Below are positions 11,428 to 27,552 of a stretch of DNA of 32,000 bases, in pieces. This DNA is from Candidatus Nanohalobium constans. GTDB taxonomy: Archaea > Nanohalarchaeota > Nanosalinia > Nanosalinales > Nanosalinaceae. Location of the stretch: assembly GCF_009617975.1 (NCBI RefSeq), contig NZ_CP040089.1, positions 750,001-782,000 on the forward strand, given 5' to 3'. Position 1 is the stretch's first letter. Every line of letters begins with the position of its first letter. The position numbers were made by a program, and so were the translations under genes. The notes under the pieces are model-generated. The model was not told where the DNA came from and did no database searches. It was given only the letters and a program-made list of their open reading frames with translations.

Positions 11428-12138
11428 ATGATACACTTAATCGGACTAGGACTAGACAACAAAGAAGCAACAGAAAAAGGCCTGGAAGCCATAAAATCAG
11501 CCGACAAAGCCTACGCAGAATTCTACACGAATACTGAGACAATTAATCTAGAAAGGATAGAAGAGAAAACAGATTCCAGCATCCAGAAACTTTCACGGAA
11601 AGAAGTCGAACAGGAAGACAAGATACTGGAAGAAGCAAAAGACTCAGATGTAGCGTTCCTAGTCTCTGGCGATGCATTGACCGCTACAACTCACTACGAC
11701 ATCAAACATCGAGCAGAAGAAAAGGAGATAGAGACGGAAGTAGTCCACGCTCCTTCAATCTTTACTTCAATCGCTGAGACTGGGTTAAATGTCTATAAGT
11801 TCGGTCGTACAGTTACCCTGCCAGAAAACGGAAAACCGGATTCCGTCATCAAATATGTTGAGAAGAACGATGAGATCGGACTGCACTCATTGATACTTCT
11901 AGATATCAACCTGGAAGCCAGCGAAGCAGCGGAAAAAATCCTGGAGATGAAACCAGAATTCTCAAAAAGAGAGGCTTTAGTACTGGAAAGAGCTAATCTG
12001 GAAACCCAAGAAATCTCCAGAATGACTCTTGAAGAAGTTTCTGAGAAAGAGTTCGGAGAACCACCTCACTGCCTGATTCTACCAGGAGAGAAAAGCCATA
12101 AGGAAGAAGAGTTTTTGACAAGATGGCGAGATTGGTAA
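11428..12138 (+). CDS. dphB: Diphthine synthase
   Basis: 236 aa. MIHLIGLGL...AYAEFYTN, VAFLVSGDALTATTH, VVHAPSIFTSI..TGLNVYKFGRTVTL, GLHSLILLDI and FGEPPHCLILPG all match archaeal Dph5/DphB. Confidence 0.92.
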   Translation: MIHLIGLGLDNKEATEKGLEAIKSADKAYAEFYTNTETINLERIEEKTDSSIQKLSRKEVEQEDKILEEAKDSDVAFLVSGDALTATTHYDIKHRAEEKEIETEVVHAPSIFTSIAETGLNVYKFGRTVTLPENGKPDSVIKYVEKNDEIGLHSLILLDINLEASEAAEKILEMKPEFSKREALVLERANLETQEISRMTLEEVSEKEFGEPPHCLILPGEKSHKEEEFLTRWRDW

Positions 12139-12170: not shown

Positions 12171-12482
12171 ATGTCGAAGCAGCGTGAGGCTTTCGAGGAG
12201 ATAGAGGAAACTGTGGCAGAAGAGTTAGGTGATTCGCTTAAGAAGTTAATTCTCTTCGGAAGTGTGGCGAGGGACGAGGAGGACGGAGATAGTGACCTGG
12301 ACCTATTTGTCGTTGTTGAAAATGAGAACCAGAAGCGGTGGGTAGAGCAGGAGGCGGCAGAAATAGGCGTAGAATACGGCGTAGTGGCATCAGCTATCGT
12401 AAAAACTGAAGACCAGTTTGAGAATATGAAGAACACATTATTTGGAAAGGAAGTATTGGAGACCGGAGAGACATATGTCTGA
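12171..12482 (+). CDS. Minimal nucleotidyltransferase (MNT-type antitoxin)
   Basis: 103 aa. The motif LILFGSVARDEEDGDSDLDLFVVV is the GS-x(n)-D-x-D nucleotidyltransferase signature. It overlaps the downstream HEPN gene by 8 nt. Confidence 0.85.
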   Translation: MSKQREAFEEIEETVAEELGDSLKKLILFGSVARDEEDGDSDLDLFVVVENENQKRWVEQEAAEIGVEYGVVASAIVKTEDQFENMKNTLFGKEVLETGETYV

Positions 12483-12852
12483 AGTTGAAAAGAATATTGA
12501 GCTGGCTGATAATGCTTTTGAAGATTTCGAAAAAGGAAGAAACGCTGGGTTAAGTATCAGAGCTTTATACAATCGACTATATTACGCTTGTTTCTATGCA
12601 GCCAGGGCAGCATTAATTTCTCAAGGAATAGAAGCTAAAACTCATTCAGGTATCGCAGACAGAGTATTTCTCGTCTTATACAAGGAGAAAAATCTGATAA
12701 GCAAAGAAACAGCAGCTACTTTATCTAGAGTGGAAACTAAGAGAAATCTATCTGACTATGAGCTTGAAATAGATGACACAGAAGAAGATCTAAAAGAGAT
12801 AGAACAAAAAGCCAGAAAGTTCGTCAAGGAAATGAACAAGCTACTAGACTAG
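12475..12852 (+). CDS. HEPN-domain protein (toxin partner of the MNT)
   Basis: Starts at ATG 12475 (the ORF-track start at 12442 is TTG). RLYYACFYAARAALISQGIEAKTHSGI and TKRNLSDYE match the HEPN (PF05168-like) pattern. Confidence 0.8.
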   Translation: MSEVEKNIELADNAFEDFEKGRNAGLSIRALYNRLYYACFYAARAALISQGIEAKTHSGIADRVFLVLYKEKNLISKETAATLSRVETKRNLSDYELEIDDTEEDLKEIEQKARKFVKEMNKLLD

Positions 12853-12881
12853 ATAACCTCAAATCTTAAATTTGTTTGACT

Positions 12882-12899
12882 TGCATTACATGTTATGCA
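12882..12899. promoter_or_regulatory. 18-bp near-perfect palindrome spanning the antitoxin start codon (candidate operator)
   Basis: TGCATTACATGTTATGCA matches its own reverse complement at 16 of 18 positions. ATG 12895 lies inside it. Confidence 0.4.
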
Positions 12900-13119
12900 G
12901 AAGACTGTGCGGAATGTGGACGAAGATATTTTCGAGGAGGCTAAGAAGCTAGCTTCCGAAAAAGGCTTGAATATGGGTGAAGCAGTGAACAGAGCTTTGC
13001 TTGACTGGATCAGCAGCGAGAAAGAACCTGAACTGGACATCATGGAGTTTGAGCCTGTTGAGATGAGCGACGAAGACGAGAATCTGAGTGAAAACTACAG
13101 GGAAGAACTCTATGGATAG
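12895..13119 (+). CDS. Ribbon-helix-helix (CopG/VapB-like) antitoxin
   Basis: 74 aa. KTVRNVDEDIFEEAKKLASEKGLNMGEAVNRALLDWI fits a strand-helix-helix pattern. It overlaps the downstream PIN gene by 8 nt. Confidence 0.7.
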   Translation: MQKTVRNVDEDIFEEAKKLASEKGLNMGEAVNRALLDWISSEKEPELDIMEFEPVEMSDEDENLSENYREELYG

Positions 13120-13507
13120 ATACTTCTTGGATACAAGTTTTCTCATCGCATTCTTCGATTCGGGTGACGAACATCACGAGAAGTCCAGAGAATTAATGAA
13201 AGAAATAAAATCAGAAGAGCTTGTAATATCCGATCAGATATTTTCCGAAACCGTGAATACTGCTTTCTCAAAAGTCGGATACAAGACAGCAAGAGATTGC
13301 TCAAGATACCTGAGGAAATCACAGATAAAAATAATGTATCTAAACGAACCGGGATTCCAGAAAGCATGCAAACTGTTTAGAGAAAACGAGATAAGTTTTA
13401 CAGATTGCAGTATAATCTCAGCCATGAATCTGCTTGGAATAGAAAAACTAGCAACATTCGACAACGACTTCGAAAAGTTTCAGAAAACAGAAATTATCCC
13501 TGAATAA
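13112..13507 (+). CDS. vapC: PIN-domain ribonuclease toxin VapC
   Basis: Starts at ATG 13112. MDRYFLDTSFLIAFFDSGDEHHEKS, ISDQIFSE, and C-terminal TDCSIISAM...LATFDNDF are PIN motifs. Confidence 0.85.
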   Translation: MDRYFLDTSFLIAFFDSGDEHHEKSRELMKEIKSEELVISDQIFSETVNTAFSKVGYKTARDCSRYLRKSQIKIMYLNEPGFQKACKLFRENEISFTDCSIISAMNLLGIEKLATFDNDFEKFQKTEIIPE

Positions 13508-13543
13508 GTAAATCTAAAAGCTTGTGATACACAATTACATTGT

Positions 13544-13852
13544 ATGAATGTTGATGAAAACACTCATAGAGAAGCATTTGAGAAGTATGCATCCAGGATA
13601 ATAGACCTAGATTCAGTTGAAAAAGTAATTTTATTCGGTTCTGTAGCTAGGAATAGTCACGGCATAAACTCCGATGTAGATGTTTTTGTCAAGGTGGAAG
13701 ATATGTCCGAAGCAGACAAAATTGAGGAAGCAGCGTTTGAAACAGCTGCAGACAAAGGAATATCTATAACACCCATAATAAAACAATATGAGGACGAAAG
13801 CAGCCTTATGAAAGATATTAAACAAGAGGGAGTTGAGTATGTCAGAGGTTAA
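13544..13852 (+). CDS. Minimal nucleotidyltransferase (MNT-type antitoxin), second copy
   Basis: 102 aa with the motif VILFGSVARNSHGINSDVDVFVKV. It is a divergent paralogue of 12171-12482. Confidence 0.85.
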   Translation: MNVDENTHREAFEKYASRIIDLDSVEKVILFGSVARNSHGINSDVDVFVKVEDMSEADKIEEAAFETAADKGISITPIIKQYEDESSLMKDIKQEGVEYVRG

Positions 13853-14207
13853 AGAAGAAATAGAACTAGCAGAAGAAGCTCTTAAAGACTACCAACACAT
13901 GGAAAAAATGTCCTTGAGAAGAAGATACAACACGCTCTACTACGCAGTTTACCACGCAGCAAGAGCCTCACTGCTGAAAAGAGAATACAGCCCAAAAACA
14001 CATTCAGGTCTCGACAGCCTGGTAAGAAACATCCTATGCAAAGATAAAGAGATACTAACAGAAGAAGAAGCAAGCAGCTTCTCAAAGCTGAAAACACGCC
14101 GTGAGCAAGCAGACTACGAGACCAGCTTCTTCGGATCAGAAGACGAACTAAAAGACCTAGAAACCAAAGCAAGAAAACTACTCACAAAACTCAAAGAATC
14201 AGTATGA
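13839..14207 (+). CDS. HEPN-domain protein, second copy
   Basis: Starts at ATG 13839 (the track start at 13833 is TTG). TLYYAVYHAARASLLKREYSPKTHSGL and TRREQADYE are present. It overlaps the MNT stop, and it is roughly 40% identical by eye to 12475-12852. Confidence 0.8.
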   Translation: MSEVKEEIELAEEALKDYQHMEKMSLRRRYNTLYYAVYHAARASLLKREYSPKTHSGLDSLVRNILCKDKEILTEEEASSFSKLKTRREQADYETSFFGSEDELKDLETKARKLLTKLKESV

Positions 14208-14443
14208 ACAAGACACAGGAAAAGTTGAAGGAAGAAACAGAGAAATGGCTGGAAAAACTGGATGACAGACTTGAAGGAAAAGACAAAGATGTCGAACAAA
14301 TGGAAAATGTCCTAGCATATAGAGACGACACTATCCACTTCTTAGAGGAAGAGGACTATATTCGGGCCTGGGAAGCAGTCATCTACGCATGGGGAATACT
14401 GGAGACACTGGAGAGATTAGGACGATTTGAGGAAACAGAATAA
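14204..14443 (+). CDS. DUF357 (COG1849) family small archaeal protein
   Basis: 79 aa. AYRDDTIHFLEEEDYIRAWEAVIYAWGILETLERLG matches the DUF357 pattern as I remember it. Its start overlaps the HEPN stop in an ATGA. Confidence 0.65.
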   Translation: MNKTQEKLKEETEKWLEKLDDRLEGKDKDVEQMENVLAYRDDTIHFLEEEDYIRAWEAVIYAWGILETLERLGRFEETE

Positions 14444-14469: not shown

Positions 14470-14739
14470 ATGAGAGATCCCTGGAAATTCGTAGCATTTG
14501 GACTAGCAGCAGTATCAGGATACATGTCATCAAGCATTGCTACTAGTATCGCGACTCAAAACTACGGGTTGCCAGAACTTCCAGGGAATGTACTGATTAT
14601 TGCCGGCATTGGACTATTTACTGGATTCTTGATCGATGAACTGATTCCAGCATACTACGAAAAAGTCAGAGGCAGCTCAGCAGGAGCAGGAGGAGACTTC
14701 GATGCAGGAAGCGGAGGCGATGACTTTGACTTCGACTAA
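14470..14739 (+). CDS. Small two-helix membrane protein with a Gly/Asp-rich tail
   Basis: 89 aa. Two hydrophobic segments and the tail GSSAGAGGDFDAGSGGDDFDFD. Confidence 0.55.
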   Translation: MRDPWKFVAFGLAAVSGYMSSSIATSIATQNYGLPELPGNVLIIAGIGLFTGFLIDELIPAYYEKVRGSSAGAGGDFDAGSGGDDFDFD

Positions 14740-15217
14740 AAAAATCCTGCTAATAACCCTACTACTAGCTGGATTTGTTTCCACCGTTTCAGCCGACTTC
14801 TACTATGGCAGCGGAGGCATCTCTACAAGTAGCGATTACTTCACAACCCCCGAATTTAGCTCACAACAAGAAATAGCTACAGAACTAGTCGCACCATTCA
14901 TATTCATCACAGTACTCCTGCACTTTGCACTAAGCAAAGCACTGAACTTCATCATGGCAGAAGATGTAGAAAAGGAGAACTACCACGCAATACCCTACGG
15001 AATACCTCTCAGAGAAAAAGAACACGGACATGACAGACTTCATCCAGATGCCAGAAAATACGCCATGATAATGTCCCTCACAATAACTGCCTCACTCGTA
15101 CCAACACCATACTGGGACATAATCAGAGGAGCAATGGGATTAATAGGAATAGGAACAGCGATTGCATTTGCGACCATTATAGGGTTTGTAATTTATTTGA
15201 TGGCCAAAGTACCATGA
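14720..15217 (+). CDS. Membrane protein with signal peptide, unknown function
   Basis: MTLTSTKKILLITLLLAGFVSTVSA, then the helix APFIFITVLLHFALSKALNFIMAED and two further C-terminal helices. ATG 14702 is an alternative start. Confidence 0.6.
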   Translation: MTLTSTKKILLITLLLAGFVSTVSADFYYGSGGISTSSDYFTTPEFSSQQEIATELVAPFIFITVLLHFALSKALNFIMAEDVEKENYHAIPYGIPLREKEHGHDRLHPDARKYAMIMSLTITASLVPTPYWDIIRGAMGLIGIGTAIAFATIIGFVIYLMAKVP

Positions 15218-15253
15218 AAGTATTTTTAACTATACTAGAATAAATGCGTCAGT

Positions 15254-16717
15254 ATGGATAATAAGAAGCGCATCTTGATGTTTCTCACATTATTTACAAT
15301 TTTCACAGTAAGCGTTTCTGCACAAACTGGATTTGCGGAATCCCAAAACCCGTTAGGGGATTTCTTCCAAGTATTCAATGACCAAATTAGTTGGTATGAT
15401 GGAGAGGGATTAGCACCATTTATTCTTTGGATACTTATACCTGCTCTAGGTCTATTCGCAATTTTTAACTTTGTGTACACCAAAGCCTTCGAATTCGCAG
15501 AACAAAACTTCAGCAATAATTCTGGTATTTCAAGAGATGGACTATCGGACATGGCAGATAGCATGTCTAAATTACTGGCAATTTCAACCAGCATAGTCAC
15601 ACTGGTATTCTGGGGGGGCCTATTAGGATGGGCAATGATTGTAGCAGGAGCCGGAGCAATAGTATGGTTTGCATGGGCAAATGCAGCTGGATTAAAAGGA
15701 ACAATAGCTCCCCTACCTTTCGGAGGAGACGATGAAGATGGTGAGGGCGCCTCCTCAGATATGGTAGAAAGTCTTCAAAATGAAATTGGTTCATTGCAGG
15801 ATGAAATAGGGGATCTGAGGTCAAGACTGGATGATGACAGCTCTGACGAGAATCCAGATGAATTACTAGGTGAGATTGATTTCGAAGTAAGTGAACTTGA
15901 GGATATTATAGGCAAGCTTGAAGGAATAGAATCTGACTTTGAAACCACTCTAAGTAGTGTAAAGGATGAGGAAGATTATATACTTAGAGAGATTGAGGAT
16001 GAGGAAAAATCCATTCAAAAAATGCAGCAGACAGTAGAAGACACTCAAAGTGTAATCAAAGCATTAGCACAAGTAAAGAGTCAAGGTGTAAATCCTAGTG
16101 AATTTGGTTATGAAAACTACGGTAGTTTAGCCAAAGCCTTCAGTGAATCTGCGGATCAAATGAGTAACTTCGAAGGAGTACTTGAAGAAGAAATGGATAT
16201 TATAGAGAGAGCAGGGAGTGTTAAAGCAGAACTTAAAGGGCTGGTTGCTGAAATATCAGAACTTGAACAGGAAGTTGAAGCTGTTGAGAGTCTTTCTGAA
16301 CAACTAGAAGGGGAAGAAATTCAGGCAGAAAAAATAGCGAAGAGATACAATGATGAAGCTGATTGGGAGAAGATTAAAGAAGAGGAGGAAGAAACAGCCG
16401 CAGCCATAGAAAAAATGGAGAAAGTCTTGAAAGAAAAAGATGAAATTAAGAAACAGATTCAGGCTGAACTGAGAGAACTTGAGGAAATAAAACAAGAAAA
16501 CAACGAAGAGATAAGTCAAATAAGGCAGATACTCCAAGAACTCAATGAAGAAGAACAGGAGATAGACATAATCGAAGACGAGATAGATTCTGCACAGAGT
16601 GGTGCAGGAAGGCTTAATGCTGCCACTAGAAACTATGTAGAACCCGCTCTAGAAGATCTAAGGAATACAATAGAAACTTTGGAAAGTGAGACCAGTCAGG
16701 TTTTAGAAAGATTATAA
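15254..16717 (+). CDS. Membrane protein with signal peptide, about 3 TM helices and a ~330-aa acidic coiled-coil domain
   Basis: 487 aa. MDNKKRILMFLTLFTIFTVSVSA, then DFFQVF, the helix APFILWILIPALGLFAIFNFVYTKAFEFAEQ, and the Gly/Asp linker PFGGDDEDGEGASSD. A long E/K/L/I heptad-rich region follows. Confidence 0.7.
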   Translation: MDNKKRILMFLTLFTIFTVSVSAQTGFAESQNPLGDFFQVFNDQISWYDGEGLAPFILWILIPALGLFAIFNFVYTKAFEFAEQNFSNNSGISRDGLSDMADSMSKLLAISTSIVTLVFWGGLLGWAMIVAGAGAIVWFAWANAAGLKGTIAPLPFGGDDEDGEGASSDMVESLQNEIGSLQDEIGDLRSRLDDDSSDENPDELLGEIDFEVSELEDIIGKLEGIESDFETTLSSVKDEEDYILREIEDEEKSIQKMQQTVEDTQSVIKALAQVKSQGVNPSEFGYENYGSLAKAFSESADQMSNFEGVLEEEMDIIERAGSVKAELKGLVAEISELEQEVEAVESLSEQLEGEEIQAEKIAKRYNDEADWEKIKEEEEETAAAIEKMEKVLKEKDEIKKQIQAELRELEEIKQENNEEISQIRQILQELNEEEQEIDIIEDEIDSAQSGAGRLNAATRNYVEPALEDLRNTIETLESETSQVLERL

Positions 16718-16755
16718 AAGAGAACAACAACAAAGTTTGAACAGGACGATATAAA

Positions 16756-16896
16756 ATGGCAGAAGAGGCAACACAGACTGCGACCATTATGGTTCGTATG
16801 ATGAACAACATTGATGTCGCTTTGATTGGAGCAGCGGCAGGCTTTGCAGTGTCAAAAATGACTGGAAGAAAGAAGCGTGGAATGGGAGGATTCTAG
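16756..16896 (+). CDS. Possible 46-aa single-helix membrane micro-protein
   Basis: ATG at 16756. MAEEATQTATIMVRMMNNIDVALIGAAAGFAVSKMTGRKKRGMGGF. It fills an otherwise empty gap in a tight operon and is below the ORF-track length cutoff. Confidence 0.35.
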   Translation: MAEEATQTATIMVRMMNNIDVALIGAAAGFAVSKMTGRKKRGMGGF

Positions 16897-16906
16897 GTGG
16901 TTAAAA

Positions 16907-17170
16907 ATGAATAAAGCACAGAACTTCAGAGATTTTGTTTACAAGGCAGAAAACATAATAGACGAACTCCTGATCGTGCTACTATCACTGGGAGCGATTA
17001 CAGTGACAGTTTACACGATGTTCTTCACTTCCCAGAGCTACGACTTCATCGAGTTCGGGCGTATAATCTTCCCATGGCTAACAATGCTCGGACTGATGAT
17101 TATCGGTCGAGAACTCTGGATAATGAACCGGAAAATAACAGCCTACCTTGAACAACAAGGTGAAGAATAA
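16907..17170 (+). CDS. Small two-helix membrane protein
   Basis: ATG 16907 is preceded by AGGTGG with 6-nt spacing (the ORF-track start at 16877 is GTG). Helices are LLIVLLSLGAITVTVYTMFF and IIFPWLTMLGLMIIG. Confidence 0.55.
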   Translation: MNKAQNFRDFVYKAENIIDELLIVLLSLGAITVTVYTMFFTSQSYDFIEFGRIIFPWLTMLGLMIIGRELWIMNRKITAYLEQQGEE

Positions 17171-17173
17171 GCA

Positions 17174-17758
17174 GTGGCTCCAGAAGTCTCCGGATTCTCC
17201 AATATTATTTCTCTTCTAACAGGCGCAGACGCGTTCAGCCTACTATTCCCATTCATACTCGCATGGATGCTATTCCTAGCAGCAATCGAGAAAGCAGAAA
17301 TATTTAAAGGAAGCGATAGCCTGAATAACGCTCCTCCAGTAATGGCTATGATACTAGCATTCTTCACCGCCAGATTCCTAGTAGCACAGCCAGCATACCA
17401 AGACTTCTTCCAGGTATTCTTCGGAAAAATAGTGATAGGACTGGCATCGATATTAGGTCTGCTAACACTGGGAGCATTCACAGGCTTTGATTACAGCGAT
17501 AAAGATATCTTCAAGAAGCCTTTATTCGGCATAGCTGTATTAATGGCAGTGGCTGCCTTCATTTGGGCAGGAGGATTTGGTCCTATAGCAAGCCAGACGA
17601 ATGTCGGCAGCACATTAGCAGCTATCGCTTCATACACTCTGGAAAGTGGAGCAATATGGCTCCTGGTGATAGGTGGAGCAATATGGGCTGTTATGAAGCC
17701 TGGTGGTAGCTCAGGCGGCGACACTGATACAGGAGATGATGGAGACTCAGATGGATAA
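17174..17758 (+). CDS. Polytopic membrane protein with a Gly/Asp tail, unknown function
   Basis: 194 aa with a GTG start. Helix FPFILAWMLFLAAIEKAEIF, DFFQVF peptide, and tail GGSSGGDTDTGDDGDSDG. Confidence 0.65.
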   Translation: MAPEVSGFSNIISLLTGADAFSLLFPFILAWMLFLAAIEKAEIFKGSDSLNNAPPVMAMILAFFTARFLVAQPAYQDFFQVFFGKIVIGLASILGLLTLGAFTGFDYSDKDIFKKPLFGIAVLMAVAAFIWAGGFGPIASQTNVGSTLAAIASYTLESGAIWLLVIGGAIWAVMKPGGSSGGDTDTGDDGDSDG

Positions 17759-17771
17759 AAAGTGATTAATC

Positions 17772-18290
17772 ATGGCAGTGTTTGAGAATATACTTCAGAT
17801 GATGGTGAGTTCGGGGGCATACTACATTTTTGTTTGGCTCCTTTTCGCAGGGCTTATCTATGGCATGCTTGAGAAATATGAAGTTTTAGGAGATTCCTCT
17901 GCTATCGCTGGAGTTGCTTTAGGCGGTTCTTTCCTTATCGTGCTTGGTATCGCCTTTGCTGGACCTGCCAATGCAGTGCTTCTTGATTTTGCTGGCGGTC
18001 TTGGTTTTATAGCAGTTGTCTTGTTCGGCACGGCTATCCTCTTAGGTATGAGCGGTATTGATGTCATGGATATGGGAGAGGATGGTGGCTTGGAGGGAAA
18101 TATTCTGGCTGGTGCTGGATTGATTTTTGTGGCAATAGCGTTGATAGGTGCTATTGGATTTAATGTGAATCTTGAAAGTGTTTTGTCTTTAGGTAGTGGA
18201 GATGTCTATCAAGATGTGGTATTTCCTATTGCGTTCCTAATATTCTTGTTACTGGCAATTGACGCCACTACAGGCGGTGGCGGAGACTAG
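17772..18290 (+). CDS. Polytopic membrane protein with a Gly tail, unknown function (paralogue-like to 17174)
   Basis: 172 aa. Helix YYIFVWLLFAGLIYGMLEKYEVL, several Gly-rich helices, and tail TTGGGGD. Confidence 0.65.
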   Translation: MAVFENILQMMVSSGAYYIFVWLLFAGLIYGMLEKYEVLGDSSAIAGVALGGSFLIVLGIAFAGPANAVLLDFAGGLGFIAVVLFGTAILLGMSGIDVMDMGEDGGLEGNILAGAGLIFVAIALIGAIGFNVNLESVLSLGSGDVYQDVVFPIAFLIFLLLAIDATTGGGGD

Positions 18291-18318: not shown

Positions 18319-19185
18319 TTACCAGTCTTTTAGTTGTTCGTCGACTTGTTCCATGTCTTGGCTTGAGATGTTGGTCTCTGTTTGTATTCCTTTTTCTTGT
18401 TTCATTTCTTGTACCAGGCTGGTTAGGTCTCTGACATTGTCGACTAGGCTTGGTAGTACTTGTTGGAATGCTTTTTCTAGTCCTCCTATCCGTGATTGGT
18501 AGGAGTCGATGTGGTCTTCCATTTCGTCTACTTTCTGTACAAATTCTTCTTGGTCTTCATCGTCCCTAACTTCTAGGTCGTGGACCCGGTTTTCTAGGTC
18601 TTCTACTGCTTCTTCTATTGTGTCGAGTTCTTCGTACATGTTTTCGAACTCTGCTTTTACTCTTTGGAAGTTCTCTGCTACTATTGTTTCGATCAGTTCT
18701 TCCACTGCTGGATCAACTGATTGTCCTTGTCTTTCGTTTTTAGTTGGTTGATTCTGTGTTGGTTGCTGCATGTTGTTTGCCGACAGTTTCTGTTGCTGTG
18801 TATTGTTTTCCTGTTTTTGAGGCTCGTCGTTGTATCCTTCGTCCATTGGACTCACTGGTTCGTCGTCGCTTTGGTATGGTGTCATTGGTTGAGGTCCATC
18901 GTCTTGAGAAGTTGCTGAACTGGTTACTGCATTGTTCACTGCATTGCTGATTTCTTGTTCTGAGTATTGTCCTTGTAGTTCGTTTTTGATCTCGTCTTCG
19001 CTGTATCCTTGTTCGAACATCTGTTCTACTGTCCTATCGAGGCTTCCACCGCCTAGATCTGAGTTTGAGTCTAGGCCTCTGTCTCCTAGACCTGGGCTAC
19101 TGGTGTTGCCTCCTATTCCCTGTGTCTGGTTATCTGGGTTGCTTCCACCGTCGTCTCTGAGGCGTTCGAATAGTTTGAATTTCAT
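18319..19185 (-). CDS. Acidic protein with a disordered Q/N/G-rich N-half and a C-terminal coiled coil
   Basis: 288 aa. Low-complexity NNTQQQKLSANNMQQPTQNQPTKNERQ, then the helical region EELDTIEEAVEDLENRVHDLE...IGGLEKAFQQVLPSLVDNVRDLTSLV. Its ATG directly abuts the upstream TAA. Confidence 0.6.
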   Translation of the reverse strand: MKFKLFERLRDDGGSNPDNQTQGIGGNTSSPGLGDRGLDSNSDLGGGSLDRTVEQMFEQGYSEDEIKNELQGQYSEQEISNAVNNAVTSSATSQDDGPQPMTPYQSDDEPVSPMDEGYNDEPQKQENNTQQQKLSANNMQQPTQNQPTKNERQGQSVDPAVEELIETIVAENFQRVKAEFENMYEELDTIEEAVEDLENRVHDLEVRDDEDQEEFVQKVDEMEDHIDSYQSRIGGLEKAFQQVLPSLVDNVRDLTSLVQEMKQEKGIQTETNISSQDMEQVDEQLKDW

Positions 19186-19644
19186 TTAATTTTGAGCCTC
19201 TCTGAAGTCTTGTTCTTTTTCCAGGTTTTTTAGTTTTCTGTCTATAAGGTTTTCTACTTCGTTTTTCGACATCGCTTCCTGGTTGTTTTCTTCCAACATG
19301 TCTTGGGCTTCGCTTTTGGTTATGAAAGAACTGTTTATCGGGTTCATCAGGTCCATGTAGTTCTCCATCTCCTCAAGTTCCTGAGATGTCACGAATTTTC
19401 TTTTTTCCCTGTTGATTTCTTTGATGTCTACTTCCATATTGGCTAGTCTGTCCCTGATCTCTGACATGTCGTCTCTTAGGTCCTGCATATCGTCGGATAG
19501 GTCGCCGGTTTTATCCAGCAGTGTGTCGTCCAGTGTGTTGACCCGGGCGTTAAGGTTTCTGACTTTTTCTTCCAGGTCTCTGACTCTGCGGTTGAAGTCG
19601 TTTACCCTGTCGATTATCCTGTTTATCGTGTCGCCTTGGGCCAT
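19186..19644 (-). CDS. Coiled-coil protein, unknown function
   Basis: 152 aa. RRVRDLEEKVRNLNARVNTLDDTLL...MSEIRDRLANMEVDIKEINRE is heptad-like. It is divergent from the pilus ATPase across 48 bp. Confidence 0.6.
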   Translation of the reverse strand: MAQGDTINRIIDRVNDFNRRVRDLEEKVRNLNARVNTLDDTLLDKTGDLSDDMQDLRDDMSEIRDRLANMEVDIKEINREKRKFVTSQELEEMENYMDLMNPINSSFITKSEAQDMLEENNQEAMSKNEVENLIDRKLKNLEKEQDFREAQN

Positions 19645-19692
19645 GATGTTTTATTTTACCTTTACTTGAATAATAATGGTAAGGGGTAGCTG

Positions 19693-21951
19693 ATGGCTGT
19701 AAGAGACAAAAATGTTTTCGACTACGAATACGAGGAAGAAACCGGTACTGTCCGAGTAAACATGCTGGGCAGCATCTACGGAGCTTCAATAGAAGACTAC
19801 CCCGAGGTCATGTCTCGTGTAATAAATATTCTTCAAGAAGTACCGGGTGCTTCATCAGTCATACTTTCAGAATCCCGTGACTACGAGTACGGGGAAGAAG
19901 AGATCAGCCTGTTAAGAGGAGTAGCAAATGCTATACAGGAAATCTCCTCAGAAGGCTATCTTTCACAGAACATCAAGACAGATAACTGCGACCAACTCTA
20001 CAGCCAACATTTGCCGGAGGTTCAGCAAACTGTTTTCGACAAGATGAGGCGCGACCCTGTCGGCGCTTATGTCGAACTGCGTAGAAAAAAACGGCATATG
20101 CAGCAATCCAAAGAAGACTCAGAATATCCTCAGCAAAGCCGCTGCAGGAAATACTTCATACAAGATGTGATACAACCAGTACTGGACAGGATGGAGCAAT
20201 GTGAGATAATTCAAAGAGCAACGAACTACATAACCGGGCACCATGTAGGCGACAGAGAAGTCTACAGAGAATACTTCCATCCTCTAGTTAGACCGAACTT
20301 CATGCTTACCAAGTTCATGTCTTTGCCTCCTGAGAGAGGTGAAGAGATCGACAGGTACACGGTACGGAACGATATCGAGGTTACGACCTACCGGGTACCG
20401 GATAAGACCCGTCCTGTATACCATGTAGACCCGCCAGAGTTCAACCTTCCGGAAGAGAAGTACAACCTGTTGGACGCAGCAAGGAGATTCATGGCAAGTC
20501 ACGACCCCGAATCCGGAGAATTCGCCCGACCAGAAAGAATGCAGAATGTATTCCAAAACATCGGCAGGGACATGCTGAGAGACATATCCAACCAGATGAA
20601 TATCCAACTAGGACAAGAAGAACTAGAAAGCCTGACAGACATACTAAACAGGTACACCTCAGGTCTAGGCGTACTAGAACTACTACTAGCAGATCCGAAA
20701 ATCGAAGATGTATATGTCAACTCTCCTGTCGGCAGCAGCCCAATCTATGTCAAACACCAAGACTACGGAGAATGCGAAACCAACCTCATACCCACCAAAG
20801 AAGAAGCAGAAAGCTGGGCCACACGATTCAGAATACAAAGTGGACGCCCACTAGACGAAGCCAACCCAGTACTCGACACAGAAACAGAAGTAACAGGCGG
20901 AAGAGCAAGAGTAGCAGTAATACAAGAAAACCTTTCACCAGAAGGACTAGCATTCGCATTCAGACGCCACAGAAGCAAAGCATGGACACTACCACTCTTC
21001 ATCAAAAACAACATGATATCGCCGCTCGCCGCAGGACTCCTAAGCTTCATAGTAGAAGGCAACAGAAGCGTCCTCTTCTCAGGAACAAGAGGAGCAGGAA
21101 AATCCAGCCTTCTAAGTGCCTCAATGCTCGAGATAATGAAAAACCACCGAATCGTAACCGTAGAGGACACATTGGAGATACCAGTGCCTCAGATGAAGGA
21201 TTTAGGCTATAATATCGAAAGGATGAAGTCTAGATCCGTTATTACTCAAGTTGAGAATGAGATGAGTGCTGATAACGCTATCCGTACCTCTCTACGACTC
21301 GGCGATTCCGCATTGGTAATTGGAGAGGTTCGTTCGGATGAAGCTCAGGCATTGTATGAGGCTATGCGTGTCGGAGCAGTTGCTAACTTCGTAGGAGGTA
21401 CTATCCACGGTGAGGATGCTTACTCAGTATTCGACCGTGTTGTAAACGACCTGGATGTGCCTAAGACCTCTTTCAAGGCGACGGACATCATAGTTTCCGT
21501 CAACAAGATTAAGTCTCCTGACGGCATGGAGACATATCGACGAGTCACAGGTATCACCGAGGTTCGTAAAGAGTGGACAGATGATCCGGTTGAGGAGAAC
21601 GCGTTCGTAGACCTGATGAGATACGACAGCAGCAAGGACCGTTTAGTGCCGACAGATACATTGATCAATGGCGAATCGCTTATCCTGAACCGTATAGCAG
21701 AGAATATCAAGGAGTGGAAGAATGACTGGGATGCCGTCTGGAACAACATCCAGTTGAGGAAAGATATCAAGCAGAAGCTGGTTGAGAAAGCTGAGGAAGA
21801 AGATAGAGACGATCTGTTAGAGGCTGAGTTTGTTGTAAAGGCTAACCAGCAGTTCCATATACTTTCTGAAAAAGTTAACGAGGAGTATGGCGAGCAACAG
21901 CCAGAAAGAATAATGAACAGGTGGGAGGAATGGCTAGACCAGCAACTGTAG
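19693..21951 (+). CDS. Type II/IV secretion-family ATPase (archaeal PilB/FlaI-like, VirB11/GspE superfamily) with a long N-terminal extension
   Basis: 752 aa. Walker A GTRGAGKSS at nt 21082-21108, Asp box RIVTVEDTLEI, Walker B ALVIGEVRSDEA, His box GGTIHG. The catalytic core begins only after about 430 residues. Confidence 0.9.
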   Translation: MAVRDKNVFDYEYEEETGTVRVNMLGSIYGASIEDYPEVMSRVINILQEVPGASSVILSESRDYEYGEEEISLLRGVANAIQEISSEGYLSQNIKTDNCDQLYSQHLPEVQQTVFDKMRRDPVGAYVELRRKKRHMQQSKEDSEYPQQSRCRKYFIQDVIQPVLDRMEQCEIIQRATNYITGHHVGDREVYREYFHPLVRPNFMLTKFMSLPPERGEEIDRYTVRNDIEVTTYRVPDKTRPVYHVDPPEFNLPEEKYNLLDAARRFMASHDPESGEFARPERMQNVFQNIGRDMLRDISNQMNIQLGQEELESLTDILNRYTSGLGVLELLLADPKIEDVYVNSPVGSSPIYVKHQDYGECETNLIPTKEEAESWATRFRIQSGRPLDEANPVLDTETEVTGGRARVAVIQENLSPEGLAFAFRRHRSKAWTLPLFIKNNMISPLAAGLLSFIVEGNRSVLFSGTRGAGKSSLLSASMLEIMKNHRIVTVEDTLEIPVPQMKDLGYNIERMKSRSVITQVENEMSADNAIRTSLRLGDSALVIGEVRSDEAQALYEAMRVGAVANFVGGTIHGEDAYSVFDRVVNDLDVPKTSFKATDIIVSVNKIKSPDGMETYRRVTGITEVRKEWTDDPVEENAFVDLMRYDSSKDRLVPTDTLINGESLILNRIAENIKEWKNDWDAVWNNIQLRKDIKQKLVEKAEEEDRDDLLEAEFVVKANQQFHILSEKVNEEYGEQQPERIMNRWEEWLDQQL

Positions 21952-22003: not shown

Positions 22004-24136
22004 ATGAATGAAGAGGAGAAAGAAGACTTACAGGATATTATAGACGATATCAACAGAGATGTTCAGAACTCCTCTGTACAACCTGAGAACAGCAGGGAAA
22101 AATATTCCAAGAGCTATCAAAAATACAAGGAAGAGGAAAAAGAATCTAAAGAAACAAGCAGGTACGAAAGATTTTGCTACAAGTCAGCTTCCATCCTCAA
22201 TCTTAAAGCAGATCAGGGAACGAGAGAAAAATTAAACCCTGCAATCAAACTGGTTGGCTGGGAGATCACACCCGGAATGGTGCTTTCAGCATCCGTTATC
22301 ACCGGAGGAATAGCTTTCTTCGGATGGATGATGCTGTTTATCCTGAACTCAGCTTTCGGACTGTTCCCTAACTCACTTCTCTTCATCAGCCTGATCGGAG
22401 TGATAGGCTCAGGAGTCTACATGTACTACAAACCCATCTTCGAGGCTAAGAACAAGGTAATCAGAAGCTCAGGTGAGATGATACTCTCCATACTCTACAT
22501 GGTCATCTACATGCGTTCCTCACCAAACCTTGAGGGCGCAGTCCGTTTCGCAGCCCTAAACCTCGAAGGACCAATATCAGAGGACTTAAAAAGCGTTCTC
22601 TGGGATGTAGAAGTCGGCAAATTCAACCGCGTAGAAGAATCACTAGAAAACTATACCAAAGCATGGAAAGACTACAACGAAGACTACCTAGAATCCCTAC
22701 AACTACTGAAAGCTGCTGTCAACGAACCAAACAACGATAGAAGAGAAGACCTACTTCAAGACTCGATCGACAGGATTTTAGACGGGACACAGGAAAAGAT
22801 GAAGCACTACGCCCAAGGACTGAAGACACCAGTCATGATATTGAATGCTCTAGGCGCCTTACTCCCTGTACTAGCGATGATCATGCTGCCTCTTATCTCT
22901 GTTTTCATGGGTAGCGCAATCTCTCCCTTCCAACTCTTCCTTGCATTCAACGTCGTGCTGCCAGGAACTCTCTACTGGTTTATGCAGAAAATACTAAGCA
23001 GCAGACCGCCCACAGTCAACTCAAAGCCCAAGTCCGAGGAAGCAATGCCAGAAAGAGGAAAATACTCTCTCAATATCATGTCAAAAACAGTTAAAGTACC
23101 TTCCCGAATCATCGGCGGAGGAATATTCCTTCTAATCAGTTCATTTGGATTCCTAGGCTACCTAGCCTTCCCACACTTCTACCCTGTCCAAGAACTAGAG
23201 CAGTTAGCAGTGCCAGCCCTGTTCGGAACCTCAAACGGTTTAAGCCCATTCCCTATGCTGTTAAGAAGCCTTTCAATAACTGCAGGACTCGGCTTCGGCA
23301 TAGGCGCAACAAAAATACTTGGAAATATAGAAAGAAAGAAAGCTGAGAAGGAAATAGAAAAAATCGAGAAACAGCTCCCTTCCGCACTGTTCGAGCTAGG
23401 AAACGAGATATCAGGCGGCACACCGATAGAACTAGCCTTGAAAGATGCCGCAGACTCGACATCACAGCTAGAGATTTCAAAAATGTTCAGTAAAGCCTCA
23501 GACAACATCCAGACGATGGGCATGACCTTTGAACAGGCAATATTCGACGATAGAAACGGCGCACTCAAGGAATTCCCAAGCCAAATGCTTGATACCGTGA
23601 TGAGAGCAGTACTGTCCTCATCTGAGAAAGGCACAAAGATAGCGTCGATGGCGATGCTCACAGTCTCAAAATACTTAAAAAACGTGCACAAGACACAGGA
23701 GAGACTAAACGACCTGATGGAAGAATCTACAACTACTATCCAGATGCTTGCGTACATGCTCGCCCCTGTCGTCTCAGGAGTCGCAGTCGGAATGAGCCAA
23801 ACCATCATCTCCGCGATGTTCAACCTCGGACAGCAGTTTGCGGATACACGCCAAAGCCTGCCATCACAAGGTTCAGGAGCAGGATTCGGAGGAATACTTG
23901 GAAACCTGCAGACAGCAATCCCTCCAGAAGTACTTCAGTTCGTGGTCGGAATCTATCTCATCCAACTGTTATTTATTCTAGGAACATTTTACACTAAGAT
24001 AAAGCACGGAGAAAACAAGACGTACAAAAACATGTTCATCGGCAAAATCCTCATATCAGGCTTCATACTGTACAGCATAACAATGATCATCGTAGCACTA
24101 CTATTCGGAGGAATAATATCAAATGCAACAGCATAA
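22004..24136 (+). CDS. Polytopic platform membrane protein (FlaJ/TadC/PilC-like, two T2SS-F-like cytoplasmic domains)
   Basis: 710 aa, with GGGAGG about 10 nt upstream of the ATG. Two helical cytoplasmic domains (ISEDLKSVLWDVEVGKF... and LPSALFELGNEISGGTPIELALKDAA...) are each followed by TM helices. It sits immediately downstream of the ATPase. Confidence 0.8.
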   Translation: MNEEEKEDLQDIIDDINRDVQNSSVQPENSREKYSKSYQKYKEEEKESKETSRYERFCYKSASILNLKADQGTREKLNPAIKLVGWEITPGMVLSASVITGGIAFFGWMMLFILNSAFGLFPNSLLFISLIGVIGSGVYMYYKPIFEAKNKVIRSSGEMILSILYMVIYMRSSPNLEGAVRFAALNLEGPISEDLKSVLWDVEVGKFNRVEESLENYTKAWKDYNEDYLESLQLLKAAVNEPNNDRREDLLQDSIDRILDGTQEKMKHYAQGLKTPVMILNALGALLPVLAMIMLPLISVFMGSAISPFQLFLAFNVVLPGTLYWFMQKILSSRPPTVNSKPKSEEAMPERGKYSLNIMSKTVKVPSRIIGGGIFLLISSFGFLGYLAFPHFYPVQELEQLAVPALFGTSNGLSPFPMLLRSLSITAGLGFGIGATKILGNIERKKAEKEIEKIEKQLPSALFELGNEISGGTPIELALKDAADSTSQLEISKMFSKASDNIQTMGMTFEQAIFDDRNGALKEFPSQMLDTVMRAVLSSSEKGTKIASMAMLTVSKYLKNVHKTQERLNDLMEESTTTIQMLAYMLAPVVSGVAVGMSQTIISAMFNLGQQFADTRQSLPSQGSGAGFGGILGNLQTAIPPEVLQFVVGIYLIQLLFILGTFYTKIKHGENKTYKNMFIGKILISGFILYSITMIIVALLFGGIISNATA

Positions 24137-24152: not shown

Positions 24153-24239
24153 ATGAAGGCTCTAATCGGAATAATAATAGGAATGGTGTCAATAGCAATT
24201 TTCCTATCAGTATGGAGCTCTTCACCAGCGATACCATGA
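24153..24239 (+). CDS. Possible 28-aa hydrophobic micro-protein
   Basis: MKALIGIIIGMVSIAIFLSVWSSSPAIP, with AAGGAAG upstream. Its stop overlaps the next start in an ATGA at 24236-24239. Confidence 0.35.
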   Translation: MKALIGIIIGMVSIAIFLSVWSSSPAIP

Positions 24240-24427
24240 AAAAACGCAAAGGCGATGTTAATGGAACTAGGTTCCTCGTAGAAGTCATACTAGCAATAGC
24301 TGCACTGACACTTGCCTTATATTTTATACCTGAATGGCTGCAAAACGCAAAGGAAGCGACGCAAGGTTGCACAATACTTCAATCAGTAGTCGCAGATGCA
24401 ACACAGGGCGCAATCAACTCATGCTGA
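24236..24427 (+). CDS. Small pilin-like protein with a class III-type signal
   Basis: 63 aa from ATG 24236. MKKRKG then DVNGTRFLVEVILAIAALTLALYF. Two Cys lie in the short C-terminal part. Confidence 0.55.
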   Translation: MKKRKGDVNGTRFLVEVILAIAALTLALYFIPEWLQNAKEATQGCTILQSVVADATQGAINSC

Positions 24428-24434
24428 CACAACC

Positions 24435-26546
24435 ATGGTAAACACACATTTCATCATCGGCATAACACTGACAATCCTAGTGACAGCCACAACGCTATCC
24501 GCATACAACTCAATAAGAATAAACACTCTCAACCCGCAAGCAGATAAACTAGATCAAGTAACCGGACACATAGGTCGCCCTGACATCAAAATATCTTCTA
24601 AGAACCAGCTGAAATCCACAGTACTGTTCAACATGCTGGCAGCAACCGACTGCAGAATATTAACAAGTTACGCCTATGCAGAACGACAAGGAGAAAATAT
24701 AGATATTAAAAGCAACGCCAACCAACTGAGCGACATCAATGATACAGCCTACTACTCGGAAGGACTTAGTCCTGCATTCAAACACGGTTTTTCAGGTGAA
24801 TGTGCAGGAGCCGGAGGACAAGCTTACGCAGTCGGTGAGTTAGTTGAAGAAAGCAGTAAGTCCGCAGTTGAGTCACTGCCCGGAGGGACAGCTTTAGCCA
24901 ACTTAAAGAATATTATAGGAGGTGCTGACAGAGAGTTTTTAGAGGAGCCAGGAAGAGACATGGAAGGAATGTTCGGCAAAATAAAGTTCAAAATAAATAA
25001 GACAGAGGACGAAGGAAAAATCCGGATTGGAACAAACCAAAACTCAAAGTTTATAGCAATGAAAGCAATTAACCCATCAGGAAACCTGCTCAACGACCAA
25101 GATTCAAGGATACCGGACTTCTTACTTGGTGAAAAAACTTCAGCATTTATCCCAGCAGGCGTGAGTTTAAACCAGTACTCAGAGATGAACAACGAGTGCC
25201 CGGATGGAAGCGGTTATGTTGAAAAACTTAAAGCCGTTACCAGCCCTAAAAAAGCAGTTCTGGAACTTTTGGACACCAGTTTTGATTATATAGAAGGCAA
25301 TTATCCATGTGAAGCACAGGATAAGGTTCTGATAGACTTGGTAAACAACCCTACCAAGATCCATGATGGTGAGGACCTGACTAATCCAGGAATTGATAGC
25401 CTTTACTCTTCAAGAGTTCGAATAGACACAGGAGAAACTAGAAGAATTATTGTGGAAGATGCTGGAGAGTTTAAGTACGAAACAGGAGGCAACCAGTACA
25501 GATCTTTCCTTAATCAGGCGAAATGGTACTTATGTGAAGGTGATGAGGGCTACATTCAGAGCAATGCAGGAACATACGATAACACTGGTGAGGCAGGTTC
25601 AGAGAATTTTGTAAGAGAGGATAGAGTATATCCCTTGATAAAACTCACTGAATCTACAAACTGTCTTGATAGAGGCGGTCCTGACGCACCAACCACCAAT
25701 TTCGGAGTGTATTCGACGTCAGAAGTACATCAGAAAGTAAGCTGCAGTGTTGAGGAGAGCATCGCAAAAGAGAAGAAGTTTACAGCCAGTATCCACGACA
25801 CCAGCACAGATTATTACTGTGGTTTGGTACCTCAGACTTTCCGTTTTGATGATTACAGTGGCGAAGTCGACTATTACAGAACCGGTTTGTTCGCCGAGCA
25901 AGATATGTGTCCGGAGTCCGGAATGCGGAAGAATATGCTGGATGAAGAAATACTCGAATTACAGGCGGAAGAGTACTCTTACGACTGGAAGGGAGATAGA
26001 CCTCGGAGCAGCTATGCATTCCTGGACAACGGAGACCTCAAGATGAGAGGAAACCACCAAGGAGGCGTACTAGGTTCAGATGGGAACGCAACTGCAGAAT
26101 GGAATGTCAAAGATTACGATAACTTTGCTCTCACAGGAGTTATAGACATCCTAAACCAAGGAAGCGAATTTACAGACACAAATACCAAGGAATCAAACGG
26201 ACAGCTGAAATTCAAAGTGAATAATGAAACAGTTATGGAGTACAAGAAGAGAAAAGGAGTATCAGGAATCTATTCAAGAGGAGAACTTAAGGCTGAGATC
26301 TCGGACGAATACGACGAGACAGAACTCAATTTTGTCATAAGAGAGAGCGGTACTATGACGCTAACCATGGTAGATGCAGGCAAACAAGTGCAAAGTTCAT
26401 TTGACGCAACCAGAAACTTCCACGAAGACCATCCAACAAACATAAAGATAGTGGTCAAAGGCGAAAAAGGAGGAGATAACTATAGACTCCCTATACAAAT
26501 GGAAAAAGCAATCCTAAAGAACTCTAAACCAGCAGGGTGTGAATAA
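24435..26546 (+). CDS. Large Cys-rich extracellular protein with an N-terminal pilin-like helix (candidate adhesin or minor pilin)
   Basis: 703 aa from ATG 24435. MVNTHFIIGITLTILVTATTLSAY is followed by a long hydrophilic region with more than 10 Cys. I recognise no domain. Confidence 0.7.
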   Translation: MVNTHFIIGITLTILVTATTLSAYNSIRINTLNPQADKLDQVTGHIGRPDIKISSKNQLKSTVLFNMLAATDCRILTSYAYAERQGENIDIKSNANQLSDINDTAYYSEGLSPAFKHGFSGECAGAGGQAYAVGELVEESSKSAVESLPGGTALANLKNIIGGADREFLEEPGRDMEGMFGKIKFKINKTEDEGKIRIGTNQNSKFIAMKAINPSGNLLNDQDSRIPDFLLGEKTSAFIPAGVSLNQYSEMNNECPDGSGYVEKLKAVTSPKKAVLELLDTSFDYIEGNYPCEAQDKVLIDLVNNPTKIHDGEDLTNPGIDSLYSSRVRIDTGETRRIIVEDAGEFKYETGGNQYRSFLNQAKWYLCEGDEGYIQSNAGTYDNTGEAGSENFVREDRVYPLIKLTESTNCLDRGGPDAPTTNFGVYSTSEVHQKVSCSVEESIAKEKKFTASIHDTSTDYYCGLVPQTFRFDDYSGEVDYYRTGLFAEQDMCPESGMRKNMLDEEILELQAEEYSYDWKGDRPRSSYAFLDNGDLKMRGNHQGGVLGSDGNATAEWNVKDYDNFALTGVIDILNQGSEFTDTNTKESNGQLKFKVNNETVMEYKKRKGVSGIYSRGELKAEISDEYDETELNFVIRESGTMTLTMVDAGKQVQSSFDATRNFHEDHPTNIKIVVKGEKGGDNYRLPIQMEKAILKNSKPAGCE

Positions 26547-26584
26547 TTAACAACTACATCAACAGAATAGCGGACGAAATCAGC

Positions 26585-26749
26585 TTGCAGACCAAAAAAG
26601 GATTCAACAGGATACCATTCGTAGTTGCCGGGTTTATTCTAGCTATTATGATAGTTGCCGCGTATTTCAGCGGTTTTGATAACGTTCTTACCTCGGTCCT
26701 AGGCGGATTTAATGAAACTGCTAACTCCCACACCGTGCCGAACCCTTGA
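26585..26749 (+). CDS. Possible 54-aa pilin-like protein with a TTG start
   Basis: The frame opens after TGA 26540-26542, and TTG 26585 is the only canonical start before the helix. (M)QTKKG then FNRIPFVVAGFILAIMIVAAYF. Below the ORF-track cutoff. Confidence 0.4.
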   Translation: MQTKKGFNRIPFVVAGFILAIMIVAAYFSGFDNVLTSVLGGFNETANSHTVPNP

Positions 26750-26759
26750 CCACAGATAG

Positions 26760-26773
26760 TTTATTGATTTAAA
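26760..26773 (+). promoter_or_regulatory. Possible internal TATA-like element ahead of the pilin sub-operon
   Basis: TTTATTGATTTAAA lies about 30 nt upstream of ATG 26798, in a 48-bp gap. Confidence 0.25.
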
Positions 26774-26797
26774 CGAAGAGTTGTTAATGTAGTATTA

Positions 26798-26926
26798 ATG
26801 GATATTGCGATCAAACTGGGTTTAAGTTTTATCGTATTCATGTTGCTAGCCGCCATATTAGGAAGTATGCTTAACTTCGGGCAAAACCAGGTTTTAGGAT
26901 TTGTTAACGGACTGTTATCCTTATGA
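26798..26926 (+). CDS. Possible 42-aa membrane micro-protein
   Basis: MDIAIKLGLSFIVFMLLAAILGSMLNFGQNQVLGFVNGLLSL. Its stop overlaps the next start in an ATGA at 26923-26926. Confidence 0.45.
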   Translation: MDIAIKLGLSFIVFMLLAAILGSMLNFGQNQVLGFVNGLLSL

Positions 26927-27530: not shown

Positions 27531-27552
27531 CAGAAAAAAGAGAATAACATAT

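Follow-up and report, generated by a model that had tools for sequence, protein, structure and literature searches.

Tandem arrays of a DPANN membrane protein family and candidate accessory genes at a type IV filament locus of Candidatus Nanohalobium constans

We analysed a window of 32,000 nucleotides (nt) from the genome of Candidatus Nanohalobium constans (contig NZ_CP040089.1, positions 750,001 to 782,000 of the forward strand), a cultivated nanohaloarchaeal ectosymbiont of Halomicrobium. Positions 14470-18290 of this window contain seven genes, named here A to G, that form a tight operon of small integral membrane proteins. Profile searches assign the last two, F and G, to an unnamed family of membrane proteins found across DPANN archaea, whose genes nearly always form tandem arrays. 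In three deeply diverged lineages and in the Nanohalobium clade, the array occupies a fixed position relative to genes of a type IV filament motor. Our preferred reading, which we hold tentatively and consider to fall somewhat short of an even chance, is that a DPANN type IV filament machine includes A-G as accessory or scaffold subunits in the membrane, the structural role being suggested by analogy; A-E would be additions made in the Nanohalobium clade, and C would provide a membrane-anchored coiled coil. We take both the protein family and the accessory module to be new, while the filament system to whose locus they belong is of a kind already known. The genes of the operon, with lengths in amino acids (aa), are as follows.

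A: 14470-14739, plus strand, 89 aa, from the list of open reading frames (ORFs)
B: 14702-15217, plus strand, 171 aa, from the ORF list
C: 15254-16717, plus strand, 487 aa, from the ORF list
D: 16756-16896, plus strand, 46 aa, from the ORF list
E: 16907-17170, plus strand, 87 aa, ATG start backed by orthologues (the mechanical ORF begins at GTG 16877)
F: 17174-17758, plus strand, 194 aa, from the ORF list
G: 17772-18290, plus strand, 172 aa, from the ORF list

All seven genes lie head-to-tail on the plus strand, with spacing from -38 (overlap) to +38 nt. A preliminary description of this DNA, made from the sequence alone, had reported the same tight co-directional operon. It had counted eight ORFs, but the one at 16756 was entered twice and only seven are present. 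Its start of E at 16907 is supported by ten orthologues. By hydropathy, there are two hydrophobic segments in A, three to four in B, three to four in C, about one in D, two in E, and five each in F and G. Transmembrane (TM) segments are predicted in all of the proteins except D, which has a single short Gly-rich hydrophobic stretch.

Eleven related nanohaloarchaeal loci (L001-L011) were compared with the window by BLASTP, in which every ORF of these loci was searched with the window proteins. Orthologues of A-G were observed in the same order wherever the contig extends (L001, L002, L004-L007), and partial sets were found in L003 and L008-L011. Thus the genes of the operon are real. The identity of orthologues to the window protein is 73-88% for A, 55-81% for E, 45-89% for D, 47-70% for F, 48-70% for G, 26-59% for B, and 21-30% for C. 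Pattern scans of genomes and metagenomes retrieved close relatives only. In scans of A-G against Pfam and NCBIfam no model reached its cut-off; C produced only coiled-coil noise, and all other matches were sub-threshold. The earlier statement that no known family could be recognised is therefore correct as regards the curated families of these two databases.

All-against-all BLASTP among A-G produced no significant match, the best ones being B-C (E = 0.07) and F-G (E = 6). Profiles were needed to see relations within the operon. Orthologue alignments were compared by hhalign with each other and with a profile of 110 sequences of the F/G family. F and G match at 91% over 124 columns, and G matches the family profile at 99.2% over 163 columns. 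Judged by these profiles, F and G are true paralogues, homologous over the whole length. The situation is different for B, which matches the N-terminal module of C at 76% over only 21 columns, and F at 60% over 56 columns. Its match to the family profile, 49%, spans 23 residues only (residues 61-83, ELVAPFIFITVLLHFALSKALNF versus LPFLLxFAIxYxILxKxxIF) and is not a full-length one. Plausibly, B carries the same first helix as F and G behind a signal peptide. C matches the family profile at 1.3% and, in these comparisons, is not demonstrably related to F/G. No likeness of A, D or E to other members of the cluster was seen by hhalign of orthologue profiles.

A helix common to four of the proteins had been proposed in the preliminary description as a sign of paralogy. 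The proposal is secure for F and G, is reduced to a short motif in the case of B, and fails for C. The hexapeptide DFFQVF is indeed present in both C and F. However, this is a chance coincidence, since a shared 6-mer arises in 5-7% of shuffles and the stretch is not conserved in the orthologues of C. Gly/Asp tails had also been pointed out. Those of F, G and C do exist but are variable regions of low complexity; only the GGDDFDFD(Q) tail of A is conserved.

A profile of F orthologues was searched against 1.84 billion representative proteins (E < 1e-3, clusters at 50% identity). The family comprises at least 107 representative clusters, with matches of 82-241 aa (nearly all 145-241), most of them near full length. 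The proteins are about 160-240 aa long, typically about 190 aa. The distant members have the N-terminal signature xxFxxxIxxLxxxGxFxxxLPFLLxFAxxYGxLxKxKIFG, and some of them score far better with the model of G than with that of F. A hidden Markov model (HMM) built from the distant members only detects both F (E = 6.5e-33) and G (E = 9.4e-16), which places both in the family. The members of named origin come from Nanohaloarchaea, Ca. Nanohalococcus, Ca. Nanoarchaeia, Woesearchaeota, Pacearchaeota, and Aenigmarchaeota, all of them DPANN archaea. F is 100% identical to a protein of Ca. Nanohalobium constans annotated as hypothetical, and every other member with a given name is likewise called hypothetical; a broad-profile word-indexed search added few more. 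We conclude from the profile matches that F and G belong to an unnamed, undescribed, DPANN-wide family of predicted five-helix membrane proteins, and thus the label 'orphan', applied to them initially, is wrong. The restriction of the family to DPANN archaea could reflect the sensitivity of the search.

F has five predicted TM helices and an acidic low-complexity tail. AlphaFold2 (AF2) modelling of F on the alignment of 110 sequences produced a model with eight helices, a predicted local distance difference test score (pLDDT) of 86 and a predicted template modelling score (pTM) of 0.61; the model made on a shallow alignment of 21 sequences (pLDDT 58) was unusable. Only one position, Pro26, is conserved in at least 90% of the 110 sequences; in a smaller set, Gly134 is as well. 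No conserved catalytic, pore-lining or Asp residue was found among these sequences. As there is no conserved polar or catalytic residue, the conservation would fit a structural role better than that of an enzyme or transporter. The search of PDB sequences with the family profile resulted only in a compositional match to Nqo10 (E = 0.0017). The profile searches and structure prediction, both suggested in the preliminary description, have led to no curated family, and the F model is without a relative in PDB.

The family genes nearly always form tandem arrays of two to five position-specific paralogues; arrays were observed in every long locus but two. Reciprocal best hits between loci follow the array position, first with first and last with last. 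Thus F is a first-position member, whereas G is a last-position member, its best cross-locus match being the last gene of the array in L014, a high-GC relative. Since the best hits follow position, the paralogues are old and non-redundant, which points to a hetero-oligomeric membrane complex.

Downstream of the operon, the window contains the following genes.

H: 18319-19185, minus strand, 288-aa cytoplasmic protein, convergent with G
I: 19186-19644, minus strand, 152-aa coiled-coil protein with the conserved motif Y..L.NP...F.T..E
J: 19693-21951, plus strand, secretion ATPase (VirB11/GspE/FlaI superfamily) of 752 aa, extended at its N-terminus by about 290 aa
K: 22004-24136, plus strand, 710-aa polytopic platform protein of the FlaJ/TadC type
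Pilin-like run: 24212-30789, plus strand, ORFs at 24212, 24396 (large, 716 aa), 26585, 26923, 27135, 27553, 27969, 28235, 28716, 30139, 30424

The motor at this locus is genuine. Matches above the gathering score were found both for the ATPase J (T2SSE, E = 1.8e-15) and for the platform K (T2SSF, E = 8e-8), so that the locus has the ATPase and platform pair of a type IV filament locus. The nearest solved relatives of J are Archaeoglobus GspE2 (2OAP), CpaF and FlaI. The orthologues of K are 56-68% identical to it and follow the ATPase gene in all related loci. The Pfam matches of the window include no archaellin (PF01917) and no FlaF, FlaG or FlaH, and J scores 145 bits with the NCBIfam FlaI model, far below the cut-off of 550. 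Therefore, judged by its gene content, this is a type IV filament system but not a canonical archaellum. Long filaments on N. constans cells were observed by transmission electron microscopy (bioRxiv 10.1101/794461). The ORFs of the pilin-like run have no Pfam matches, pilin models included; six of the ORFs fit a home-made FlaFind-like pattern of class III signals (M..KG followed by a hydrophobic segment). The Alba chromatin-protein gene lies within this run at 29780-30058. The orthologues of J in L001 (12521-16867) and L004 (6632-12463) are much longer, 1448 and 1943 aa respectively. The former carries the Intein_splicing and LAGLIDADG_3 domains, and the latter aligns to J of the window only up to about residue 494; J of the window is free of inteins.

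H begins with a small helical domain, which a low-complexity linker joins to a C-terminal coiled coil. It ends with an acidic ..L.DW sequence (18319-18330, minus strand), which is retained in all orthologues from the Nanohalobium clade. Its matches to FlaC_arch and DUF7310 are sub-threshold; the former was observed in four of seven orthologues, with 22.6 bits against a cut-off of 27.8. The divergent genes I and J are separated by an AT-rich spacer of 48 bp (19645-19692). This spacer is likely a shared bidirectional promoter region, which may place H/I and the motor genes under common regulation. No paper describing the F/G family or H/I was found in the literature.

Given a filament motor nearby, one could suggest that F and G (and B and C) are themselves filament subunits, a diverged platform, or a prepilin peptidase. 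The N-proximal hydrophobic helix superficially resembles the N-termini of pilins, and a few family members weakly match models of VirB2/TrbC-type pilins. We regard this as highly improbable. None of A-G fits the class III signal pattern, F and G have five TM segments each, and the signals of B and C are of the Sec type. An A24 prepilin peptidase requires a catalytic pair of the GxGD type, and the family has no conserved Asp. The possibility of a diverged platform is considered below, together with other points that concern the relation of F/G to the motor.

Eight distant contexts of the family could be read. The ATPase was searched for within about 9 kb around the array, with the following results.

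L012 (Ca. Nanoarchaeia metagenome-assembled genome): three paralogues; convergent H-like (205 aa) and I-like (132 aa) genes, then a T2SSE ATPase of 758 aa and a platform of 750 aa
JGI contig: three tandem genes; three convergent small genes, then a 794-aa ATPase and a 709-aa protein
L019: four paralogues; homologues of H (E = 7.6e-13) and I (E = 1.5e-19), then a 777-aa ATPase
L014: four paralogues and a B-like gene; H, I and pilin-like genes
L015 (Aenigmarchaeota): two copies; neither an ATPase gene nor H/I homologues within about 9 kb
L016 (Woesearchaeota): three copies; neither an ATPase gene nor H/I homologues within about 9 kb
L017: one copy; neither an ATPase gene nor H/I homologues within about 9 kb
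L018: one copy; no T2SSE gene within about 9 kb (the H and I HMMs were not run on this locus)

A fixed layout, consisting of the array, convergent H/I genes, and divergent genes for a long ATPase and the platform, is thus seen in three diverged lineages in addition to the Nanohalobium clade. Homologues of H and I occupy the same position in L012, L014 and L019, and in L012 and L019 their homology was confirmed by both HMM and alignment. The remaining flanking genes of the distant loci are wholly different. In L019, a highly hydrophobic polytopic protein of 367 aa is encoded at 15271-16374, between the ATPase and a platform-like protein of 720 aa. A small gene with a weak match to the PRC-barrel is located directly upstream of the first F/G gene in L012 (9684-9965), in locus L013 (55-336), and in L018 (8719-8991). 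This PRC-barrel-like gene was observed in two or more lineages, both with and without an ATPase nearby.

The preliminary description had suggested a functional link of the cluster with the adjacent ATPase and platform. The recurrence of the layout in three other DPANN lineages makes such a link plausible, but not universal. The comparison of neighbourhoods has also separated two parts of the operon: the F/G array recurs beside motor genes in some DPANN lineages, whereas A-E are limited to the collinear loci of the Nanohalobium clade.

The accessory role of A-G in the filament machine has to be weighed against several observations. Firstly, no motor gene was found within about 9 kb in four of the eight distant loci (L015-L018), so the link is not obligatory. 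Secondly, A-G are convergent with H and I and are not co-transcribed with the motor. Thirdly, the region is collinear throughout the Nanohalobium clade, including the DUF357 and diphthine synthase genes, and hence the adjacency of A-E to the motor carries no independent weight. The structural role of F/G is suggested by analogy only: comparison of the F model with PDB by Foldseek revealed no similar fold (best E 2.3, TM-scores < 0.25), and comparison of the family profile with the platform alignment by hhalign resulted in 0.2%, which disposes of the diverged platform as well. No A24 prepilin peptidase was seen among the window proteins scanned. Finally, the role of A-G as a whole is derived from sequence and neighbourhood. 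All these points weigh against the accessory role.

On a rival reading, the F/G array would be a general DPANN membrane complex unrelated to the filament and involved, for example, in membrane homeostasis, protein insertion or transport, the adjacency to the motor being an ancestral gene order and A-E being unrelated co-transcribed membrane proteins. In about a half of the sampled distant loci, the array or single copy is indeed found among housekeeping genes with no motor nearby; the position-specific orthology is retained even in L016, where there is no motor; and A-G form a separate, convergent transcription unit. However, at least four lineages share this layout with its specific orientation of genes, even though the flanks are different and F has only about 20-25% identity with the members in the distant loci concerned. 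An unselected gene order is not expected to persist over such divergence in archaea. We therefore consider a complex unrelated to the filament to be rather unlikely, although it is the main competitor.

A possible relationship with DUF2070 (PF09843), a predicted archaeal membrane protein with no published function and no pilus link reported in the literature, also bears on this matter and would favour a complex unrelated to the filament. Colinear, near full-length, sub-threshold matches to positions ~36-179 of 561 of this family were observed for 25 of the 110 family members, whereas other Pfam families are matched by at most four of the 110. The best score is 20.7 bits, below the gathering cut-off of 30, and F and G themselves have no match. 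The DUF2070 proteins are about three times longer than the F/G family ones. The signal is weak but consistent, and suggests a remote relationship at most.

The distribution of A-E was judged from the loci read. In these, A-E were seen only in Nanohalobium-like loci, with the exception of a weak match of the B HMM (E = 0.0075) to L014 7983-8849, which encodes a 288-aa B-like protein heading the array. No homologue of A, the N-terminal part of C, D or E was found in any distant locus read. A and E are the most conserved members of the operon. A has two TM helices, a Gly-rich linker and the conserved C-terminal tail GGDDFDFD(Q) (14716-14739), which is kept in its seven orthologues (73-88% identity). 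E has two TM helices and ten orthologues of 84-99 aa (55-81% identity). D consists of a single Gly-zipper-like hydrophobic helix, whose Gly-zipper match is sub-threshold only, with a basic C-terminus; its nine orthologues are 34-58 aa long (45-89% identity).

B and C have a common architecture, a cleavable signal peptide followed by three TM segments. In B, the Sec-type signal peptide (..VSA|DF) is followed by a conserved aromatic segment of about 35 aa outside the cell and three TM helices, the first of which bears the APF..L..SKA motif of the F/G family. C is composed of a Sec-type signal peptide (..VSA|QT), three TM helices, a Gly/Asp linker, and an acidic coiled coil of 322 aa (29% Asp+Glu, 0.9% Pro) that has only sub-threshold matches to proteins of the SMC/Rad50 type. 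This is the fusion of a membrane module with a coiled coil, estimated at about 330 aa, that had been noted in the preliminary description, and its composition bears out that assignment. C evolves fast, as its orthologues are only 21-30% identical. In L002 (7660-9541) and L006 (7777-9517), two genes instead of one lie between B and D. The first of them encodes a protein with a signal peptide and TM segments, and with a Cys-rich tail containing paired CxxC motifs (zinc-ribbon-like). The second one encodes a leaderless acidic coiled-coil protein. The absence of an export signal in this protein implies that the coiled coil of C lies in the cytoplasm. However, the HMM of the coiled-coil part of C does not pick up the coiled-coil genes that stand alone in L002 and L006, and thus the equivalence is positional only.

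If A-G indeed serve the filament machine, the platform could be surrounded by a collar or scaffold of F/G-type subunits embedded in the membrane. The ATPase would then be held or positioned by a cytoplasmic scaffold made of H, I and the membrane-anchored coiled coil of C, which would take the role of FlaX or FlaC/D/E in archaella. A-E would be additions specific to the Nanohalobium clade, and B and C would display short conserved peptides outside the cell. Acidic-aromatic C-terminal tips often serve as docking peptides, and the DDFDFD tail of A and the ..DW end of H may be such peptides.

One more possibility is a dedicated apparatus for host contact or exchange, in which oligomers of F/G would be a pore or a membrane-remodelling unit, energised or positioned by the filament motor, and would take up lipids or metabolites of the host. 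DPANN symbionts are lipid and nucleotide auxotrophs; the cultivated DPANN archaea depend on hosts, and the family has so far been found only in DPANN archaea. The conserved peptides of B and C would be outside the cell, and the fold of F has no known relative. N. constans depends on cell contact, and it deforms the membrane of its host (bioRxiv 10.1101/794461). On the other hand, the putative pore would not be lined by conserved polar residues, and the DPANN restriction may be due to search sensitivity, as mentioned above. We consider such an apparatus improbable. Equally, there is only a small chance that the tandem F/G arrays together with H/I are the core of a DPANN-specific machine that couples the filament motor to a task other than pilus formation, for example at a contact-site pore, with A-E, including the surface peptides of B and C, being host-range-specific adaptors of the Nanohalobium clade. 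The 'cell-contact or anchoring apparatus' of the preliminary description is a speculation of this kind.

The accessory role preferred here has parallels in known systems. Many uncharacterised membrane and coiled-coil accessory proteins have been catalogued in archaeal type IV pilus loci by Makarova, Koonin and Albers (2016), in a study that leaves DPANN genomes uncovered; the examples are arCOG07264 and arCOG07329 of the Sulfolobus bindosome locus, arCOG10497 and arCOG10500 of Thermoproteales, and arCOG05557 and arCOG13890 of subclade 4D, with four to five TM segments (PMC4858521). Like F/G, the accessory proteins of that study are small proteins with several TM segments, encoded beside an ATPase of the VirB11 family and a TadC/FlaJ platform, and their role was inferred from the neighbourhood (PMC4858521). 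The F/G family differs in being DPANN-wide, in its tandem position-specific paralogues, and in its two coiled-coil partner genes, although the comparison with PMC4858521 is one of descriptions and not of sequences. No such family is described in a 2026 preprint on archaeal type IV filament systems.

The likeness to the archaellum concerns the coiled-coil proteins. C resembles FlaX (ArlX) in being a membrane-anchored cytoplasmic coiled coil, and H and I resemble FlaC/D/E (ArlCDE) in being cytoplasmic coiled-coil proteins encoded beside the ATPase, although the FlaC_arch matches of H are below the cut-off. The window differs from archaellum loci in having neither archaellin nor FlaF/G/H, and in the low FlaI score of J. 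Another analogous situation is that of the halobacterial subclade 4F, where the ATPase/TadC pair is accompanied by the coiled-coil arCOG07564 and the ATPase clade is also represented in nanoarchaea (PMC4858521). Here, too, the ATPase/TadC pair has an intracellular coiled-coil partner, and H has sub-threshold similarity to the haloarchaeal DUF7310. However, no membrane array similar to F/G has been described for 4F. Among bacterial alignment and inner-membrane accessory subcomplexes, PilM/N/O and TadB with TadC offer a functional analogy only, as small proteins that stabilise the platform and the ATPase, with no similarity in sequence or fold.

To our knowledge, every cultivated DPANN archaeon needs physical contact with its host, which type IV filaments are commonly suspected of making; we know of essentially no components of the DPANN filament beyond the ATPase and platform. 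The module defined here consists of a DPANN-wide five-helix family in arrays, two coiled-coil proteins, and the pair of a long ATPase and a platform. It is present in N. constans, which has a closed genome and is cultivated with Halomicrobium, so that proteomics and cryo-electron tomography are feasible. A structure or an interaction map of F/G would add a new class of components to the biology of archaeal type IV filaments. Should the array have nothing to do with the filament, it would represent a conserved membrane complex of DPANN archaea whose role is unknown.

Upstream of the operon, a toxin-antitoxin island (12171-14207) is located between the diphthine synthase gene (11428-12138) and the DUF357 gene (14204-14443). 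It contains two nucleotidyltransferase/HEPN pairs (12171-12852 and 13544-14207) and a VapB-like/PIN pair (12895-13507). The related loci have fewer toxin-antitoxin modules at this spot. Further upstream, the region 1362-7947 on the minus strand encodes surface-type proteins of 582 and 1148 aa with PKD, CarboxypepD_reg, and Ig/fn3-like domains, followed by a 429-aa ORF without Pfam matches. In L001, the cluster is flanked by a similar PKD protein of 1415 aa.

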